In this document: in pieces, positions 21,393-47,608 of the stretch | Numbering within the stretch: position 1 is the first letter of the stretch | How the letters are laid out: every line of letters begins with the position of its first letter | Virus record (IMG/VR): IMGVR_UViG_3300038393_000879 | DNA length: 56,543 bases | Direction: 5' to 3' (one strand) | DNA from: a virus | Notes under the pieces: model-generated | What the model was told of the DNA's origin: nothing | Database searches by the model: none | What the model saw: the letters and a program-made list of their open reading frames with translations, nothing else | Program-made: the position numbers and the translations under genes

Positions 21393-22043
21393 TTACCATT
21401 GTAAATTATCGGCGTGTTGCGCTATTTTCCCTCTGAAATTGATATTGAGCGCGCAAACATTTGCGTATTCTTCTGTTTCGAAATGTTTCATATAAGGAAC
21501 AAAACCCGATTTCTTTGGGTCTTTTAAGTCACATTGACCGTCGTGCCCAATCATAATGACCGTGCATGTATCATGTATCCGTGTAAGCACTTTCTTTAGT
21601 TCGCCTCTTGTAAAGTTTTGTGCTTCGTCAATGATCACAGTACAATTTTTAATGTTTGTTCCGCGAGCAAAAATGTGAGATTTCGGATAAACCCATGCTT
21701 GCTTATTTATGAACTCTGGGTCGTCCTCTTTATAGATTGCAAATCGAGGATCCTCACGAATTTCTTTTAGCGCGTCAATCAGCGGGAATAGGTACTCTTG
21801 TTCCTTATCTTCCTGCGTTCCCGGACGGAACCCCATTTCTTTTTCTTGCACCGGAGCAAAAATGTAAACCAACGGTTGGTTTAACAGTTTCGCAGAGGCA
21901 ACCGCGAGCGTTGTTTTTCCTGTCCCAGATTTTGCATTTACAATGGTGAATTTGTAATCAAAAATTGAGTTTACGTACTCCCTTTGTTCGTTTGTTAGTC
22001 GAGGCTCAAACCCAAATAACAAATTATTTTTCGGCAGCGGCAT
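21393..22043 (-). CDS. phoH: PhoH-like ATPase
   Basis: Walker A NAKSGTGKTTLAV; Walker B VIIDEAQN. Confidence 0.8.
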   Translation of the reverse strand: MPLPKNNLLFGFEPRLTNEQREYVNSIFDYKFTIVNAKSGTGKTTLAVASAKLLNQPLVYIFAPVQEKEMGFRPGTQEDKEQEYLFPLIDALKEIREDPRFAIYKEDDPEFINKQAWVYPKSHIFARGTNIKNCTVIIDEAQNFTRGELKKVLTRIHDTCTVIMIGHDGQCDLKDPKKSGFVPYMKHFETEEYANVCALNINFRGKIAQHADNLQW

Positions 22044-22587
22044 GATTGTTTCCTCCTGGTTTTTGATATTCTCTGTAGTGATTTCCTAAACAAATATTGG
22101 TTATCGTCGTTTTGGAACAGCTAAATATTTCTGCGATTTCTTTGTATAAAAGACCTTTGCTTCGCATATTTAATATTTCTTTAATCTGCTCTTCGTTGAA
22201 AATTCTTCTTGCTATCGCACCTTTTTTACCGTTTTCTCTGCTAGCTCTTAAACGAATTTCTTTTGGCGTGTCTTGAATATTTTCTTTGTGTGTTCCAAGT
22301 TTTAAGTTTTCTCTGCTGTTGTCTTTCTCGTTTCCGTTTAGGTGTCTAACTTCTATTCCTTTTTCGAAAACAGCTTCCCCGAAAAAATAATAAGCAGCGA
22401 ATTTGTGTTGGGGTATGGTTCCCTTTTTCTTTTGTCCAGCTTCTACATACCAATAAGAAAAGTTCAAGTATGTTACAGTTGATTTTCTGGATAGCTCAAC
22501 GCCTCTTGGCGTAACAATAACCCCATCATCTCTTGCGTAATAGCCCTCTTTAAGCGCCATTCGCGCAAGCAATTCCCATTTTCTCAC
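22024..22587 (-). CDS. Free-standing HNH homing-type endonuclease with C-terminal HTH
   Basis: VRHLNGNEKDNSRENLKLGTHKEN; C-terminal LLYKEIAEIFSCSKTTITNI. Confidence 0.7.
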   Translation of the reverse strand: MRKWELLARMALKEGYYARDDGVIVTPRGVELSRKSTVTYLNFSYWYVEAGQKKKGTIPQHKFAAYYFFGEAVFEKGIEVRHLNGNEKDNSRENLKLGTHKENIQDTPKEIRLRASRENGKKGAIARRIFNEEQIKEILNMRSKGLLYKEIAEIFSCSKTTITNICLGNHYREYQKPGGNNHAAAEK

Positions 22588-22957: not shown

Positions 22958-24305
22958 TCAACGAATTGGACATACCCCTGAAAGGCACGAAGCGTCTGAA
23001 CCTAAATCGAAATCCGTTTCTACCGTTTCAAATTGTTCTAATAGTTTTGGATCAAACGGCTTCATTTGTGCTTTAAGTGTTTCGTAAGTCTTCTCGTCGC
23101 ATGCTTCGTAAGGTGCTAGTTTGTAAGTTCCACCGTCTAACGCAAGGAATGATACCGCCATGAACTCGTCCCAACGCTCGAATATCTTGTCTTCTAATAG
23201 CTCCCATTCGTGTGGACGAACAGTAATCGTATTTGACGAGTTGTGTTCGGTATAATTCTTTTGGAACATAAAATAAGTATCCAACTGTTCCAGTGCGGTT
23301 ACATCGTCTTTGGTTCTGGTGGAGCCGGATTGTATCGGGAAGTCAATCACGAGTGTTCGTGCATTGGTCCAGTCGCTGCCAACTTCCGGGTTTACATTCC
23401 AGTTTAAGCTCATCGCTACTTTCGCCAGTGGATCATCAGCGTTGATACGAATACGGCGAATATAAATCGGTGAGTGGCTCATGTGAAGACCCGATGAAAC
23501 GCCTCCCATAAGCTGTGAAATCGTGCCCTCTGGCTTGACGGTTGATACTAGCAGCGGTGCAGATACACGAAGCTCGTATGCGTAACGATCCGCCTCTTGA
23601 CGCGCAACTTTGCCGAGTTTCTTCAGTAGCTTCGCTTGTTGTTCGTCGTTATAACCCAGCATAGCGAAAGCGTCTTGAACGCCTGTTAACGATGTGCCGA
23701 GCAACCGGTCACGGTTTTGTTTCTCCGCCCAGTTATACAGCTCCAATTCAACGAGTGTCATACGAAGACAAACGCGTGCTGATAGTTTTTGAGCCTTAAT
23801 TAGTTCACGCTCGTTTAATACATATTTACCATTCTTGTATTCGACGAAAGCTGTTAAATTAACAGTTGATAAGTTACAAGTTTGGTATTTATCGAGGAGA
23901 ATTTCCGCACATGGGTTCATACCTTCGAAGTTCGGGCGGCGTCTGCGTCCCTCTTCCATATTTATAAATCCTGGCTCGCCCTCATTTTTCATCATTAAGA
24001 AAACAAGATGTAAAAACTCGCGGCTTGGCTTTTCATCAAACGCGATAGAGTTATTGCTCATGCGTCTGTGGTGCATTGGACGACCAAAGTTGTAAGGCTG
24101 TTCGCCATTTACCTTTTCGTCATAATGCTTGGTGCCGACTTCATCGAACCAAACAGGAACCGGAATTTCTAATTCGATCATTTTCTGTTTGATTTCTTCG
24201 TGGCGTTCGAATTGTTCCTCCGACCACAAACCGTTAATTCCGTATTTTGCGAACATACTCTCGAAATCATTTGCACTGAATAGGTTAATTTCGGCTGTGC
24301 GTCTT
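22958..24305 (-). CDS. nrdJ: Class II (B12-dependent) ribonucleotide reductase, exon 2
   Basis: Frame reopens as RRTAEINLFSANDFESMFAKYG…; C-terminal CLSGVCPIR. Confidence 0.8.
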
Positions 24306-24491
24306 CATTCAGCCATGTTTCCCGCATTTCTACGAGGTTCGGACTATCGCTTATTCTTCGAATATACGAAGCTCTCAACCGCTTTAGTCTCTCACGCTAG
24401 CATTACCCTTGCGCCCTGTTGCCTACGCCCGAAGCGTTTAGGTTCCAAGTCAATTAGGTCGAGTTTTTAAAGTGGGGCAAGACGACTTTTT
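24306..24491 (-). mobile_element. Group I self-splicing intron (186 nt, no ORF) interrupting nrdJ
   Basis: P1 GUGGGGU/GCCCCAC with a U.G pair at the 5' splice site; P7 GACUA/UAGUC; P8 CUUCG…CGAAG; terminal G; splicing restores the frame. Confidence 0.8.
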
Positions 24492-25402
24492 ACCCCACCA
24501 ACGACAACATTGTTGCCGATTAAGTTGCCCATATCGAGAATTCCGATTGGACGAATTTTTACATAACCGTTTCCGACTTCTTCCCACTTTGGAATTGATG
24601 GGTCAAGCTGGTTTTTTAATACCTGGTCAAACCCTTCGAACATTTCCTTTAGCGGCTCCGGTCCTGAAGCGGTTCCTCCGAAAGTCTTTAGGCGCTCACC
24701 CTTTGGACGAACAGAGTTGAAATTTATCTTGATTGTGTGGATATGCTCGTATTCTTTTTCAGATAAAATCATTAAATAATTATCGAGCGCTTGGCACCAA
24801 CCCTCTTTACTATCTCCAACAAAGATTTTCGCGTATCCATTTCCGAGATCCTGCAGTTCTGTTTTGTGTAAGCGCTCGTGTTTTTCAACCGGATTGTATT
24901 CTGATAGAATTAAATCCACATTGTTACGAATTGGTGCGAGTTTGTCGATAACTTCGAATGTTGTCTTAAAACCTACGCCTGTCCCAACGAGCAATAAATA
25001 AAATAACTGCGCAAGGTCGTTCCATTTCTCGATGTTTAGGAATGAACAGTTAAAGTTCGCAAGCGGATACTTACGCGCAACGCTGTTTTCATCGCTGGAA
25101 CCAACCCAAAGTGTACGCCCTGAAACGCTTTGACGCAGATTGAACATGTTTTCAAACAATAGTTTGGCTTCTCGTTCTAGCGCCTTCTTATCTGGTTTGT
25201 AACCAATCTTACGCAGGTGCTCTTCCGCTAGTGAAATATTGTAATCAGCGGCTCTTGCTGCGGTTTCTTTCCATGTTTCGCGTCGTCCCGCCTCCGGTAG
25301 CCAACGGGAATAAGTTCTGTAAAATACGAATTTCCCAAGCTCGTTCATGTGCGCCGGGAACCCCTCAAATTTGTTTAAATATTTTTCCGGTAAAAACTTC
25401 AT
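24492..25402 (-). CDS. nrdJ: Class II ribonucleotide reductase, exon 1
   Basis: MKFLPEKYLNKF…FYRTYSRW…; ends …NNVVVGGV at the splice site. Confidence 0.8.
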
Positions 25403-25420: not shown

Positions 25421-25810
25421 TTAAAATGGAAATTTAGTATAGTCGCTGGCGGTTAAGCTGCCGGTAACTCGTTTATTTTTTCGTGGGGTAACTCGGATCG
25501 TGAAACCTTTCGCTGTTGGCGGAATGTCTGTAATGGGAACATAATAGATTTCATCGTTTGACGGGGAATAAACGGCGAAGTAATCAACCGTTAGTGGGTC
25601 GTACGGCACATCAAAAGTAACACGCAAATTATTATCGCGCTTGTCCACGCGTGCGGTCTTGATTTGAATGCGTTTGAACTCCGTTCCCAAATCTATTATT
25701 CTATCGTATCGTGTTGTTACCTTCGGAAATAGAATGTTATAACCGTGTTTGATTACATCGAGCTCAATTACAGTTTCTGAAAGCGTTCCGGTTTGAATGC
25801 TTGGCGTCAT
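25421..25810 (-). CDS. PD-(D/E)XK endonuclease (intron-type homing endonuclease family, free-standing)
   Basis: ELDVIKHGY…YDRIIDLG…FKRIQIKT core. Confidence 0.5.
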   Translation of the reverse strand: MTPSIQTGTLSETVIELDVIKHGYNILFPKVTTRYDRIIDLGTEFKRIQIKTARVDKRDNNLRVTFDVPYDPLTVDYFAVYSPSNDEIYYVPITDIPPTAKGFTIRVTPRKNKRVTGSLTASDYTKFPF

Positions 25811-44289: not shown

Positions 44290-44493
44290 TTAAAAAAGTA
44301 TATCTAATAAAAAGTTTTTTGTTTCTTCTAGTGCTGTGATTTTTCCGAGTTGGTACGCCTTCGAGTGTTTTTCGTTGTCGTTTAGTTGGCGGCTGTTTTC
44401 GATTTCGTTTATTTTCTTAACGATTGTTTTTAGTTCCTCAAGTTCCTTTTCAATTTGGAAAATTTTATTTTTTATAGTTTGGAAATTTTTCAT
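44290..44493 (-). CDS. Hypothetical coiled-coil protein (67 aa)
   Basis: ataggagggataaaATG at 44493. Confidence 0.55.
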   Translation of the reverse strand: MKNFQTIKNKIFQIEKELEELKTIVKKINEIENSRQLNDNEKHSKAYQLGKITALEETKNFLLDILF

Positions 44494-44544
44494 TTTATCC
44501 CTCCTATGGGTCGCCGGCTGTAACCGGTGGGAAAATTGAAACAT

Positions 44545-44620
44545 CCCCAGACCGTCGAGAGGTTTTTTCGTTCCTCTCTAGGTTTCGGCTCGCGGTTTCT
44601 GCGCTTGCCTCTTCAGTGGG
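44545..44620 (-). ncRNA. Type I hammerhead ribozyme, copy 1
   Basis: CCCA-CUGAAGA-GGC..GCC-GAAA-CCUAGAGAGG..CCUCUCGACGG-UC|UGGGG; predicted cleavage between 44550 and 44549. Confidence 0.85.
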
Positions 44621-44623
44621 TTT

Positions 44624-45154
44624 TTATTTCTGCCGGTCCGTCCAGTCCTTGCCGGGTCCGGTTGTACCGATTATTATATACGGCTTGCCGCTCGGTTGGT
44701 TGTTTCCGCTATCGAGAAACGAAGAACCGCCGCCAAACTCTTTTACGCTGTCTTCTATTTCTGCGCTGTTTGTGCTGTCTTCTGCGTCTCCGGTCGATTT
44801 CTTCGCCGTCGTGCTCGTTCCGTTTGCTTCCGCTAGTTTGTCCGCTATAAATTGCTTTACGGCTGCATTTAGTGCCGGATTTAGCGGTATTTTTTTATCT
44901 GGTTTTACCGGGTGCAGCCTTTCGCGTTCCTCTTCTTTTTCCGTTAATTCTACCGCTAGTTTTTCCCGTTCTGCCTCGTGCTGTTCCATTTCTTTATATA
45001 GCCAATTATGGAAAGTTCGAGACGGTGCGGCGGTTTGTGTTGCCGTTTGTTTGGCGGTGGGTTCCGGTGGTTTCGTGTGCAGCGTGTCAACTATCATGAA
45101 ACACGCGAGAAATAAAACCGCGAAACCTGCGCCGCTCTTGCGTTTGGTTTCCAT
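44624..45154 (-). CDS. Putative lipoprotein / secreted protein
   Basis: N-terminus AVLFLAC (lipobox-like); RBS aggaggtga. Confidence 0.55.
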   Translation of the reverse strand: METKRKSGAGFAVLFLACFMIVDTLHTKPPEPTAKQTATQTAAPSRTFHNWLYKEMEQHEAEREKLAVELTEKEEERERLHPVKPDKKIPLNPALNAAVKQFIADKLAEANGTSTTAKKSTGDAEDSTNSAEIEDSVKEFGGGSSFLDSGNNQPSGKPYIIIGTTGPGKDWTDRQK

Positions 45155-45200
45155 TTCGTCACCTCCTATGTGCCGGCGGTGGTTATGCCGGTGGGATTTT

Positions 45201-45281
45201 CCCAGACCGTCGGAAAGTCGCGCGGGGCGTTTCTTCCCTAGGTTTCGCCGGTGGTTCCGTTCCTTCCGGCTCTTCAGTGGG
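45201..45281 (-). ncRNA. Type I hammerhead ribozyme, copy 2
   Basis: CCCA-CUGAAGA-GCCGG..CCGGC-GAAA-CCUAGGGAAG..CUUUCCGACGG-UC|UGGG; predicted cleavage between 45205 and 45204. Confidence 0.85.
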
Positions 45282-45288
45282 TGGGGTG

Positions 45289-46071
45289 TTACTCGTATTT
45301 CTGTAACGCTGTTTGTAATGCTTTTAATAGTTTAGCGTCTGCCTTTACTTCTTCGATTGTTAAGTCTAGGGCGTCGAGTGTGTCGTCTATGTCGTTTGTG
45401 TAGCCGTATTCGTGGTTTTCTAATTCGTAAGAAAACATATGTAATAAATATTTTTCATCTTTTCGCGCTTCTGCTTCTTCTGCTTCGAATTTGTCTAACA
45501 TTTCTTTAAATTTTGCGCTGTCGTCTCTACGGTAGTAACCGCCGCCGCCTATGCTATAAATTTTGTTTGTTTCGTCGGGGTTTAATCCTAGTTTTTCCAT
45601 ACCTGCTTTAAATTGTTCATCGCTAAAGGCGAAGAATAAAGGAAAATTATTAAATTCGTCTTGCTGCTTTTGTTTTAATTCGTAGTATGTGTTTGGCTCG
45701 TCTTCGTGTTCCATGATTTCCTCGAGTTCCGCGTCGTATATGTCTATTTTTCCCTCGAGTGCTTCCATGCGTTTCAGAATTTCGTCAATGCTGCTTTTTA
45801 ATTCTTCTTCTACTTCGTGCTCTGTGTAGCTGTCTAAGTTGCCGTATCCGTTAAACTTTACGAAGTCATCGCTATAGTTGTAGTTCCCAAAATGTGCCGC
45901 CCTTACTGCTTCCGCTGGGTTGCTGAAATATAATTCGAAGAAATACTCATCATTTTCATAATATTCTAGGCTATCTAGTGAACCGTCATAACCGTTGATT
46001 TGTGAAACGATTTCTTTTAGTGTTTCAGTATTTTCTAATAGGTATTTTTTAATTTCGTTAAAGTTTTTCAT
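45289..46071 (-). CDS. Acidic hypothetical protein (260 aa)
   Basis: ataggagggaaccaaaaATG; D/E-rich. Confidence 0.6.
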   Translation of the reverse strand: MKNFNEIKKYLLENTETLKEIVSQINGYDGSLDSLEYYENDEYFFELYFSNPAEAVRAAHFGNYNYSDDFVKFNGYGNLDSYTEHEVEEELKSSIDEILKRMEALEGKIDIYDAELEEIMEHEDEPNTYYELKQKQQDEFNNFPLFFAFSDEQFKAGMEKLGLNPDETNKIYSIGGGGYYRRDDSAKFKEMLDKFEAEEAEARKDEKYLLHMFSYELENHEYGYTNDIDDTLDALDLTIEEVKADAKLLKALQTALQKYE

Positions 46072-46171
46072 TTTTGGTTCCCTCCTATGGGTGCCCCGCC
46101 GTTTTGTCGGCGTCGGGTTTCGGTTTTATCGTAAGACCGAAAAGAGCCGGTTTTTTCTTGCTTCTATAATC

Positions 46172-46199
46172 AATATAATCAATAATTTTGAATTGTCAA
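46172..46199 (-). promoter_or_regulatory. Internal sigma-A-type promoter downstream of hammerhead copy 3
   Basis: aaaaagtgTTTGACAa-16 nt-TATATT. Confidence 0.5.
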
Positions 46200-46234
46200 A
46201 CACTTTTTTAATTATTTTGTGTTTGTGGGTAACG

Positions 46235-46298
46235 CCCAGACCGTCGAACCGTTTCCGGCTCTAGGTTTCGCCTCGATTTTCACGGGCTCATCAGTGGG
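46235..46298 (-). ncRNA. Type I hammerhead ribozyme, copy 3
   Basis: CCCA-CUGAUGA-GCC..GGC-GAAA-CCUAGAGCCG-GAAA-CGGUUCGACGG-UC|UGGG; predicted cleavage between 46239 and 46238. Confidence 0.85.
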
Positions 46299-46301
46299 TT
46301 T

Positions 46302-46481
46302 TCATATAACATACCAAACTATAAATAAATTTTCTTTTCCGTCTGTGCTGCTCCACGGCGTATAAAGTGCCGCGTGGTTTTTTCTAACGTATCGGCTCGC
46401 CGCCTTGTTTGTGTTTTCGCAAAATGTTTTTGCCTGCTCTTCTGTATTGAAAAATTTAAATGTTTTTCTATATTTATTCAT
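46302..46481 (-). CDS. Small protein (59 aa); not in the supplied ORF track
   Basis: Its ATG overlaps the upstream stop; MNKYRKTFKFFNTEEQAKTF…. Confidence 0.5.
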   Translation of the reverse strand: MNKYRKTFKFFNTEEQAKTFCENTNKAASRYVRKNHAALYTPWSSTDGKENLFIVWYVI

Positions 46482-46713
46482 TTTCTAACACCTCCATTTT
46501 TAAAATAATGTTTAAAATTTCGTTTAATTCTGCTTTATTGTATTTGTTCATTATCGGTTTTTCACAATTAAAATAAATTTGTTTTATTTCTAAAGTTATT
46601 GGATCGATTAAAACGCTGTAGATTTCGCCTTTTTCTATTTCTACGATTGCCAAACCGTCGACTGTTCCGTAATGGCTGATATTATCGAAATTTTTATAAA
46701 ATGCTTTTTTCAT
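46474..46713 (-). CDS. Hypothetical protein
   Basis: 79-aa ORF; RBS aggtgaaaac. Confidence 0.55.
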   Translation of the reverse strand: MKKAFYKNFDNISHYGTVDGLAIVEIEKGEIYSVLIDPITLEIKQIYFNCEKPIMNKYNKAELNEILNIILKMEVLENE

Positions 46714-46774
46714 GTTTTCACCTGTTAACCTCTCCGAGAGTTTGAAAAACTCGGGGGCGGGATTTATTGCGCTT

Positions 46775-46847
46775 CCCGGACCGTCGAGGGGCTCGCCTTT
46801 TGGCGTCTTCCTCTAGGTTTCGACGCTTGCGGCGTCTCATCAGCGGG
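46775..46847 (-). ncRNA. Type I hammerhead ribozyme, copy 4
   Basis: CCCG-CUGAUGA-GACGC-CGCAA-GCGUC-GAAA-CCUAGAGG..CCUCGACGG-UC|CGGG; predicted cleavage between 46779 and 46778. Confidence 0.88.
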
Positions 46848-46850
46848 TTT

Positions 46851-47141
46851 TTAAAAATCGTTTAAAAATTGTTGTTTTCTTTCTGCTAAAACCTGGATAT
46901 AGTTTTCAGCGTATTTTTTTTGTGTTAGTAAATAGCTATCCTCTAGGTCGTGCAGTTGGTGACTATAGCAGAACCAAACGAGTTCGACGAGTGCCACGAG
47001 TTCCTTTTTGTTCGCAATCTGTAAGCCAAACTTTAAGGCGTCAACTCTGCGGAAAAGTTCGTCTTTCGTTGTAAATTCTAACTTGTGCCCCACTAGTTCC
47101 ATACCGATATAATTTAATGTTTGAAGTTCGTTCTTTTTCAT
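46851..47141 (-). CDS. Hypothetical protein
   Basis: 96-aa ORF; RBS gaggtgaaaa. Confidence 0.55.
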   Translation of the reverse strand: MKKNELQTLNYIGMELVGHKLEFTTKDELFRRVDALKFGLQIANKKELVALVELVWFCYSHQLHDLEDSYLLTQKKYAENYIQVLAERKQQFLNDF

Positions 47142-47206
47142 TTTTTTTCACCTCGTGAACCGTGCCAGCCTTTAAAAAACTAGCCGGAGGGGTCTCAAAA
47201 TCTGCG

Positions 47207-47281
47207 CCCCAGACCGTCGAGGCGTTGCCGTTACGCTTGCCTCTAGGTTTCGAAACGCCGCCGCGTTTCTCGTCAGTGGGA
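47207..47281 (-). ncRNA. Type I hammerhead ribozyme, copy 5
   Basis: UCCCA-CUGACGA-GAAACGC-GGCG-GCGUUUC-GAAA-CCUAGAGGC..GCCUCGACGG-UC|UGGGG; predicted cleavage between 47212 and 47211. Confidence 0.88.
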
Positions 47282-47608
47282 TTTTTTAACTCTGTAGACT
47301 GCTACTTTATACTCGGTCATGGGTTCCAGTTCGTAACCGTTCAAGCCGCCGCTTTTTTCAATTTTATTTATCAGCGCGTCGCTGCTGTGGTCTCCGTCGC
47401 GGTCCTCGAAAATTAAAACCTCGTTTTCGCTTGCGTTCATACCGTAAAATCTATTGACGCGCTGCACTGCTTCGCCTTCGTGAAACTCGAGAACCGTCTT
47501 TAACTCGCTCGGCTCTATGTCCAGTGACGCCCATAACTTGCGGTCCGCTGCGCTCATTTTTGGATTTACTAACTTTTCAATTTTATTTTTTAGCTGTTCG
47601 ATTTTCAT
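47273..47608 (-). CDS. Hypothetical protein, first gene of the ribozyme operon
   Basis: 111-aa ORF; RBS agggaggtcg; its UGA stop lies inside the ribozyme CUGA core. Confidence 0.6.
   Translation of the reverse strand: MKIEQLKNKIEKLVNPKMSAADRKLWASLDIEPSELKTVLEFHEGEAVQRVNRFYGMNASENEVLIFEDRDGDHSSDALINKIEKSGGLNGYELEPMTEYKVAVYRVKKSH

Follow-up and report, generated by a model that had tools for sequence, protein, structure and literature searches.

A predicted ORF-less group I intron of 186 nt in the class II ribonucleotide reductase gene of an uncultured phage

Group I introns situated in the conserved motifs of phage ribonucleotide reductase (RNR) genes are textbook cases (PMC3653736). A 2013 survey of sequenced phage genomes reports only two split phage nrdJ genes, those of phiYS40 and P60, neither of which the text consulted terms an intron; the phiYS40 gene is described there as two consecutive ORFs 12 nt apart (PMC3653736). 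A second class of described systems is that of collaborative homing, in which an ORF-less intron is associated with a neighbouring free-standing endonuclease, as seen for the psbA intron of cyanophage S-PM2 with F-CphI and for the DNA polymerase intron of T3/T7-like phages (PMC3984707, PMC2814812).

The locus described here lies in a 56,543-nt stretch of viral DNA (IMG/VR record IMGVR_UViG_3300038393_000879), which we refer to at its full length as the window, and all of its features are on the - strand. A gene for a class II RNR, nrdJ, appears here as two ORFs separated by 186 nt, and we consider it very probable that these nucleotides (24491–24306) are a genuine spliced, compact and ORF-less group I intron. 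This reading draws on a local match to the Rfam group I model RF00028, on a covariance model of the intron's own family and on covariation, and it is the comparative evidence that decides the group I identity; Rfam alone is weak.

The interrupted nrdJ gene and the structure of its insert

Exon 1 of nrdJ (25402–24492), delimited from the ORF list and its Pfam matches, comprises codons 1–303 together with the GU of Val304. Read without splicing, its frame extends for 311 codons from position 25402, passing through ...GNNVVVGGV and then KSRLAPL, so that it enters the insert for 8 codons before terminating at a UAA (24469–24467). Exon 2 (24305–22958), delimited from the joined translation, the Pfam domain Ribonuc_red_lgC and an alignment with PDB 1L1L that extends to its C-terminus, reopens the frame as RRTAEINLFSANDFESMFAKYG and extends down to 22958. 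With U24492 joined to A24305, the two frames form one ORF of 2259 nt and 752 amino acids that holds no internal stop. The first base of the intron and the first base of exon 2 are both A, which leaves the junction formally ambiguous by one base; only the U24492/A24305 junction both ends the intron in G and places a U.G pair at the 5' splice site.

The joined protein matches Pfam families PF17975, PF21995 and PF02867, corresponding respectively to RNR_Alpha, the B12-RNR insertion (RNR-II_ins_dom) and the barrel (Ribonuc_red_lgC). The first two are carried by exon 1, which aligns with residues 20–332 of 1L1L, and exon 2 bears the catalytic finger, NPCAE, and a C-terminal pair of cysteines in CLSGVCPIR. 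Among solved structures the best relative of the joined protein is 1L1L itself, the monomeric adenosylcobalamin RTPR of L. leichmannii (E 2.9e-52), in which NPCGEI and CEGGACPIK align with NPCAEI and CLSGVCPIR of the window protein, and the sequence across the junction aligns without a gap (NLIGNNVVVGGVRRTAEINLFS in the window, NLIGKAVVAGNVRRSAELALGS in 1L1L). The nearest homologue from an isolate is the NrdJ of Bacillus phage PK2, which is 52.6% identical, uninterrupted and annotated as the same kind of enzyme; it also aligns without a gap at the junction, and its empty site reads GGTGGGGT↓TCGTCG, where the arrow here and below marks the point of insertion. A megablast search of nrdJ against phage records gave no match, and neither did a search of IMG/VR for relatives of the joined protein.

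Judged from these alignments, the host gene is a class II (adenosylcobalamin) RNR of the monomeric RTPR type, NrdJ, belonging to an uncultured phage. The original prediction, which was made from the window's letters alone, held that two adjacent ORFs are the halves of one RNR gene, and the joined ORF, the Pfam domains and the 1L1L alignment bear this out; its exon frames, its junction and its length of 2259 nt are correct at every coordinate, and the gap-free junction that it anticipated is found against both 1L1L and the PK2 protein. The annotation would accordingly be corrected to one functional nrdJ rather than two fragments.

Within the insert the elements of a group I core can be assigned. 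P1 is a hairpin (24472–24498) in which GUGGGGU at the end of exon 1 (24498–24492) pairs with the internal guide GCCCCAC (24478–24472), with the wobble U24492.G24478 at the 5' splice site. The 13-nt loop of this hairpin holds the guide for P10, CGUCUU (24484–24479), which pairs with AAGACG (24305–24300), the first six bases of exon 2. P1 is separated from P3 by only the 8 nt of J1/3, UUUAAAAA, and there is therefore no P2. P3 pairs CUCGACC (24463–24457) with GGUUGAG (24380–24374). The P4-P5-P6 domain (24394–24449) consists of P4 (CUUG 24449–24446 with CAGG 24418–24415), P5 (CCUA 24442–24439 with UAGG 24425–24422), P5a (CGC 24436–24434 with GCG 24428–24426), P6 (GCGC 24414–24411 with GCGU 24397–24394) and P6a (GG 24408–24407 with CU 24400–24399). 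P7 pairs GACUA (24389–24385) with UAGUC (24346–24342), and the region that it spans (24342–24389) encloses the 3' strand of P3 as well as the P8 hairpin, giving the P3/P7 pseudoknot. P8 pairs CUUCG (24371–24367) with CGAAG (24360–24356) around the loop UAUAUU, and P9 (CUCGUA-GAAA-UGCGGG, with strands at 24336–24331 and 24326–24321) is closed by a GNRA tetraloop. The last base of the intron is the omega-G, G24306. The intron has no P7.1/P7.2 and no P5abc, its P5, P6, P8 and P9 are short, and P9 bears the GNRA loop.

P1, P4, P5, P6, P7 and P9 are recovered unaided by RNAalifold. The same program proposes that J3/4 pairs over a long range with the 3' splice site; we reject this helix as an artefact, since the P3/P7 pseudoknot was forbidden in the prediction. 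A pairing between the P6 loop and the tail of the intron was also dropped, as P6a accounts for the covariation of this loop and the tail pairs with exon 2. This latter pairing forms a hairpin across the 3' splice site (24293–24314) between GGCUG of the intron tail (24314–24310) and CAGCC of exon 2 (24297–24293), in which the exon strand is made up of Thr-Ala codons and the loop contains the omega-G and the exon strand of P10. Four variants of the exon strand are seen, with CAGCC facing the tail GGCUG, UGCC facing GGCA or GGUA, CGGC facing GCCG, and CGGCA facing UGCCG; the register of the hairpin moves by one base between variants and it was therefore not scored by column. This hairpin may present the 3' splice site, or transiently mask it, and its tracking of synonymous exon codons would be a neat case of co-evolution between an intron and its exon.

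Relatives at the same site and covariation

A protein search with exon 1 returns hundreds of N-terminal NrdJ fragments, nine of which end in a read-through tail of the form V-E-x-R-L-A-P. The nine metagenomic phage contigs that encode these fragments (L002, L003/L004, L005, L006, L157, L158, L159, L160/L161 and L162) carry ORF-less homologues of 165–191 nt inserted at exactly the same base as the window intron, and their exon 1 proteins are 54–60% identical to that of the window. A covariance model, R1, built from six of these introns with the window left out, matches the window at 169.7 bits (E 2.5e-43), and this is the only match in the window, with no second copy.

Covariation in the same-site set (10 sequences, 48 pairs scored) is extensive: 98.9% of cells form standard pairs, and compensatory changes occur in 22 of the 48 pairs, distributed over P3, P4, P5, P5a, P6, P6a, P7, P9 and P10. 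When the pairing partners are slid by 1–3 columns, pairing falls to 33–45% and the number of compensatory pairs to 2–3. None of 500 shuffles reaches the observed value on four of five measures and 16 of 500 do so on the count of further pair types, a significance that is inflated since the sequences are related. The alignment of the nested helices was guided by a model that already includes them; P7 and P10 are absent from this model and both still covary. In a broader set of 20 sequences, which includes relatives inserted in other genes (46 pairs scored), 98.6% of cells pair and 38 of the 46 pairs show compensatory changes.

The individual helices behave as follows. All seven pairs of P1 covary in the broad set, because the guide changes together with the exon, and the U.G wobble is invariant in the same-site set. 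P3 takes forms such as UCCUUUC/GAAAGGA and CCUUCUC/GAGAGGG in the relatives, with compensatory changes in 5 of its 7 pairs in the same-site set and in all 7 in the broad set, and every helix of the P4-P5-P6 domain shows such changes. P7 is invariant except in L002, where it is GACUU/AAGUC, a compensatory change. P8 folds into a hairpin in 10 of 10 same-site introns although its sequences are unrelated, and is not alignable by column, and P9 covaries, its loop in the relatives being GAAA, GUAA or GCAA. For P10 the pairing is retained in 100% of cells through the variants CGUCUU/AAGACG (the window), CGUCUA/UAGACG and CGCCUA/UAGGCG, with two pairs compensatory, and its guide tracks the synonymous exchange of AGA and AGG in exon 2. 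Three bases also vary together, namely the first of the intron, its partner in the guide and the first of exon 2: relatives have U/A/U where the window has A/U/A, as an exchange from P1 to P10 predicts. Outside the helices, AUG closes the intron in 10 of 10 same-site introns, with the terminal G invariant; the spacing between the 3' strand of P3 and P8 is 0–2 nt in all 10, and J1/3 consists of 6–8 unpaired, A-rich bases in 20 of 20 family members.

These relatives also bear on the remaining parts of the original prediction. It had recognized P1 with its wobble, P7, P8 and the terminal G, all of which lie where it placed them and recur as described above, and its group I reading gains support from the homologues, the covariation and the R1 score. 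It had further called the intron small, as its same-site relatives are too, and free of a homing endonuclease, for whose gene 186 nt is too short. The Rfam scan that it suggested succeeded in part: a local search of 501 nt matches RF00028 to the intron from end to end (31 bits, E 3.8e-6), but this is below the gathering score of 50, at which the intron is not reported, and an RF00028 search of the whole window at E <= 0.01 gave no match. The gathering score (31 vs 50 bits) is the one sequence-level mark of a group I intron that is wanting here. The curated model under-scores this P2-less mini-variant; standard Rfam scans miss the mini-intron family as a whole, which leaves the group I introns of phage metagenomes under-counted. 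The folding energy of the single sequence is no better than that of shuffles (z = +0.57). Elsewhere in the window, Rfam at gathering score gave no hammerhead match in the interval 44400–47400, and a local search of this interval gave one weak Hammerhead_3 match (46260–46319, 23 bits, E 0.086).

Predicted splicing and competing explanations

The analysis shows the anatomy of the intron, its family and their covariation, as well as the reading frame regained on its removal; catalysis itself, any need for a protein helper and the manner of spread are inferred. Removal from the pre-mRNA would most likely occur by the standard two-step transesterification. The internal guide GCCCCAC would pair with the end of exon 1 to form P1 with U24492.G24478 at the splice site, and an exogenous guanosine bound at P7 would attack after U24492; the adjoining guide bases CGUCUU would next form P10 with the first bases of exon 2, G24306 would occupy the guanosine site, and the exons would be ligated to give ...GGUGGGGU↓AAGACG.... 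Ligation would restore Val-Arg-Arg in the conserved NVVVGGVRRTAE motif.

A core this small might need a protein cofactor or splice poorly. The insert could thus be a real group I ribozyme that is not autonomous and depends on a phage or host protein chaperone or maturase in vivo, which we think unlikely but deserving of some weight, given that P2 and all peripheral domains are missing, that same-site members have just 165–191 nt, and that the folding energy is unexceptional. The intron is also below the size of the Azoarcus intron, which at about 205 nt is usually cited as the smallest self-splicing group I intron. However, the GNRA loop on P9 and the bulged-A P5 suggest a stabilising tertiary contact of the kind found in compact self-splicing introns, and the genes next to the family, which vary by locus, include no conserved maturase-like gene. 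[quoted passage not shown]

Other explanations dispense with splicing, or with a group I intron, altogether. Were the insert a decayed relic, NrdJ would be either a pseudogene or two polypeptides that assemble, in the manner of the NrdA of Aeromonas phage Aeh1. The frame of exon 1 does stop cleanly 8 codons into the insert, and the survey documents phage RNR genes that are split and function as two chains (PMC3653736); yet every core helix has been kept by compensatory changes while NrdJ diverged by about 40%, which implies selection on the RNA fold. Moreover, no start codon opens exon 2 where it meets the insert, its first in-frame AUG being 16 codons in (24256) and lacking a convincing ribosome-binding site, and the catalytic residues are intact in both halves of NrdJ, so that we regard a relic or a two-chain enzyme as very improbable. 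An assembly or sequencing artefact is a general possibility in metagenome-derived sequence, and an insertion of another kind (an intein, a programmed frameshift or a small transposon) might also be imagined, although we find either scarcely credible: nine independent contigs, drawn from different samples, share this element and its exact insertion base, the insert holds stops in the exon frame and is therefore not an intein, and it has neither terminal repeats nor an ORF and is matched by the group I model from end to end.

The wider family, mobility and relation to known introns

The core blocks of the window intron recur beyond this site. They are present in class II RNR genes at the catalytic TNP↓CGE site (L148, L149 and L155) and in capsid-like genes (L014, L018, L020 and L151). 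Counting a further contig, L013, five contigs have a capsid-like gene interrupted by family members, with an exon 2 of the form ...EDELTR(D/N)ML...NGDSPTE..., and a pair of related introns seems to be present in L018 and likewise in L007. Two isolated phages, Roseobacter phage CRP-118 and Nitratidesulfovibrio phage SRB7757, carry unannotated relatives that have the blocks UGAUUGACUUGGAA, GAGAGACUAAG and GCGAUAGUCC in common with the window. The CRP-118 intron (L165, OR420741.1, at about 2447–2612) is ORF-less, about 170 nt long and scores 85 bits with R1; the genes on either side of it, gp44 and gp45, both annotated 'ribonucleotide reductase', are the halves of one gene split at NP↓C. This site belongs to a different class II RNR lineage and is not the GGV↓RR of the window, and P1 and P10 differ accordingly. 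The SRB7757 intron (L166, PV062637.1, 2462–2671) is likewise ORF-less and scores 80 bits, and its record is unannotated. Two simple sequence patterns were searched for in genome contigs: a 16-mer core pattern, GCGAWAGTCCGAACCT, gave 120 matches that are essentially all due to chance, with no model match in L028–L147, and a P1/P10 pattern gave one match, also due to chance, in a GC-rich Corallococcus contig.

The insertion site itself appears to be a favoured one. Among the best 120 of the hundreds of N-terminal NrdJ fragments, retrieved by a search that is biased towards fragments, 9 break after GGV (the window intron family), 43 after VVVGG, 2 nt upstream, and 12 after VVVG, 5 nt upstream, so that 64 of these 120 best fragments break within 5 nt of the window insertion site; another 29 of them break at NP↓C. 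One of the VVVGG cases (L163, 4404–5352) is a different group I intron, which contains a 235-aa ORF for a NUMOD3 endonuclease and scores 32 bits with RF00028 over its 3' part; it interrupts the nrdJ of a related phage after GGT GGT, 2 nt upstream of the window site. Judged by these break points, GGV↓RR in nrdJ is an insertion hot spot, and the correction from two genes to one would apply to many database entries with a split nrdJ. Several further observations concern other inserts in nrdJ. L003 (4588–5568) and L004 (1839–2819) contain a second, downstream insert that encodes a LAGLIDADG_2 protein, the second break point reads GLNP↓CAE, at the thiyl-radical cysteine, and the recurring read-through tails LMLADVKPL, LTA and CASF suggest several more intron lineages in Bacillota-associated nrdJ genes, including those in genomes of Brevibacillus, Paenibacillus, Mechercharimyces and Neobacillus.

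The window nrdJ lies between two free-standing endonuclease genes. Directly upstream, ending 19 nt ahead of the nrdJ start codon, is a PD-(D/E)XK gene (25421–25810; Pfam PDDEXK_5, E 3.1e-19), for which a search by sequence found no solved relative. About 370 nt downstream of nrdJ is a gene with HNH_3 and helix-turn-helix domains (22024–22587; HNH_3 4.5e-9, HTH_7 8.5e-5), which overlaps the start of a phoH-like gene (21393–22043) and weakly matches I-HmuI, itself encoded by an intron (PDB 1U3E, E 0.023). Genes resembling those of homing endonucleases occur within about 1.5 kb of nrdJ in L002, L005 and L006, belonging to different families by locus, and no clear one is found near nrdJ in the intron-less PK2. 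A search for close relatives of the PD-(D/E)XK gene beside nrdJ found none; for the HNH gene there were likewise no close relatives beside nrdJ, and three distant HNH matches.

This arrangement resembles collaborative homing in that an ORF-less intron lies in a conserved phage gene with an endonuclease gene on each side, PDDEXK_5 upstream and HNH_3 downstream, and differs from it in that the neighbouring endonucleases change in family between loci. By analogy, either flanking endonuclease is a possible candidate for a homing enzyme acting in trans. Taking these strands together, we tentatively propose, as a view for which the odds are still rather against us, that a widespread family of P2-less mini group I introns (about 165–225 nt), unannotated in the records examined, is scattered over phage RNR and capsid genes, that its member in the window is perhaps mobilised in trans by a flanking endonuclease, and that GGV↓RR may be contested by at least three lineages within 5 nt.

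Comparison with described introns places the window intron within a familiar setting and apart from the familiar subgroups. Like the known introns of phage RNR genes it lies inside a highly conserved RNR motif and brings an in-frame stop soon after the 5' splice site, and exon ligation, here predicted, would restore the enzyme. Those known introns are situated in class I or III genes, whereas the window intron is in a class II nrdJ. Many of them carry an endonuclease ORF, in contrast to the 186 nt of the window intron, which is ORF-less and has no P2. Several known phage RNR introns belong to subgroup IA, and the P7.1/P7.2 that T4- and Twort-type members of this subgroup have between the 3' strand of P3 and P8 are missing here. 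The window intron presumably also resembles the compact bacterial introns of subgroup IC3, with which it would share a minimal core that lacks P5abc and P7.1/P7.2, a P9 capped by a GNRA loop, and a P5 written CCUAA.../...AGG with CAAC after it. However, the IC3 introns of Azoarcus tRNA-Ile and Anabaena tRNA-Leu, which occupy the position of the tRNA anticodon loop, have a P2 hairpin between P1 and P3, where the window intron has the 8 unpaired bases of J1/3. The known picture of phage introns is unchanged by these findings. A natural core of 165–191 nt that covaries well and has no P2 would be a handy minimal group I scaffold, and by its predicted secondary structure the intron fits neither subgroup IA, for want of P7.1/P7.2, nor IC3, for want of P2.
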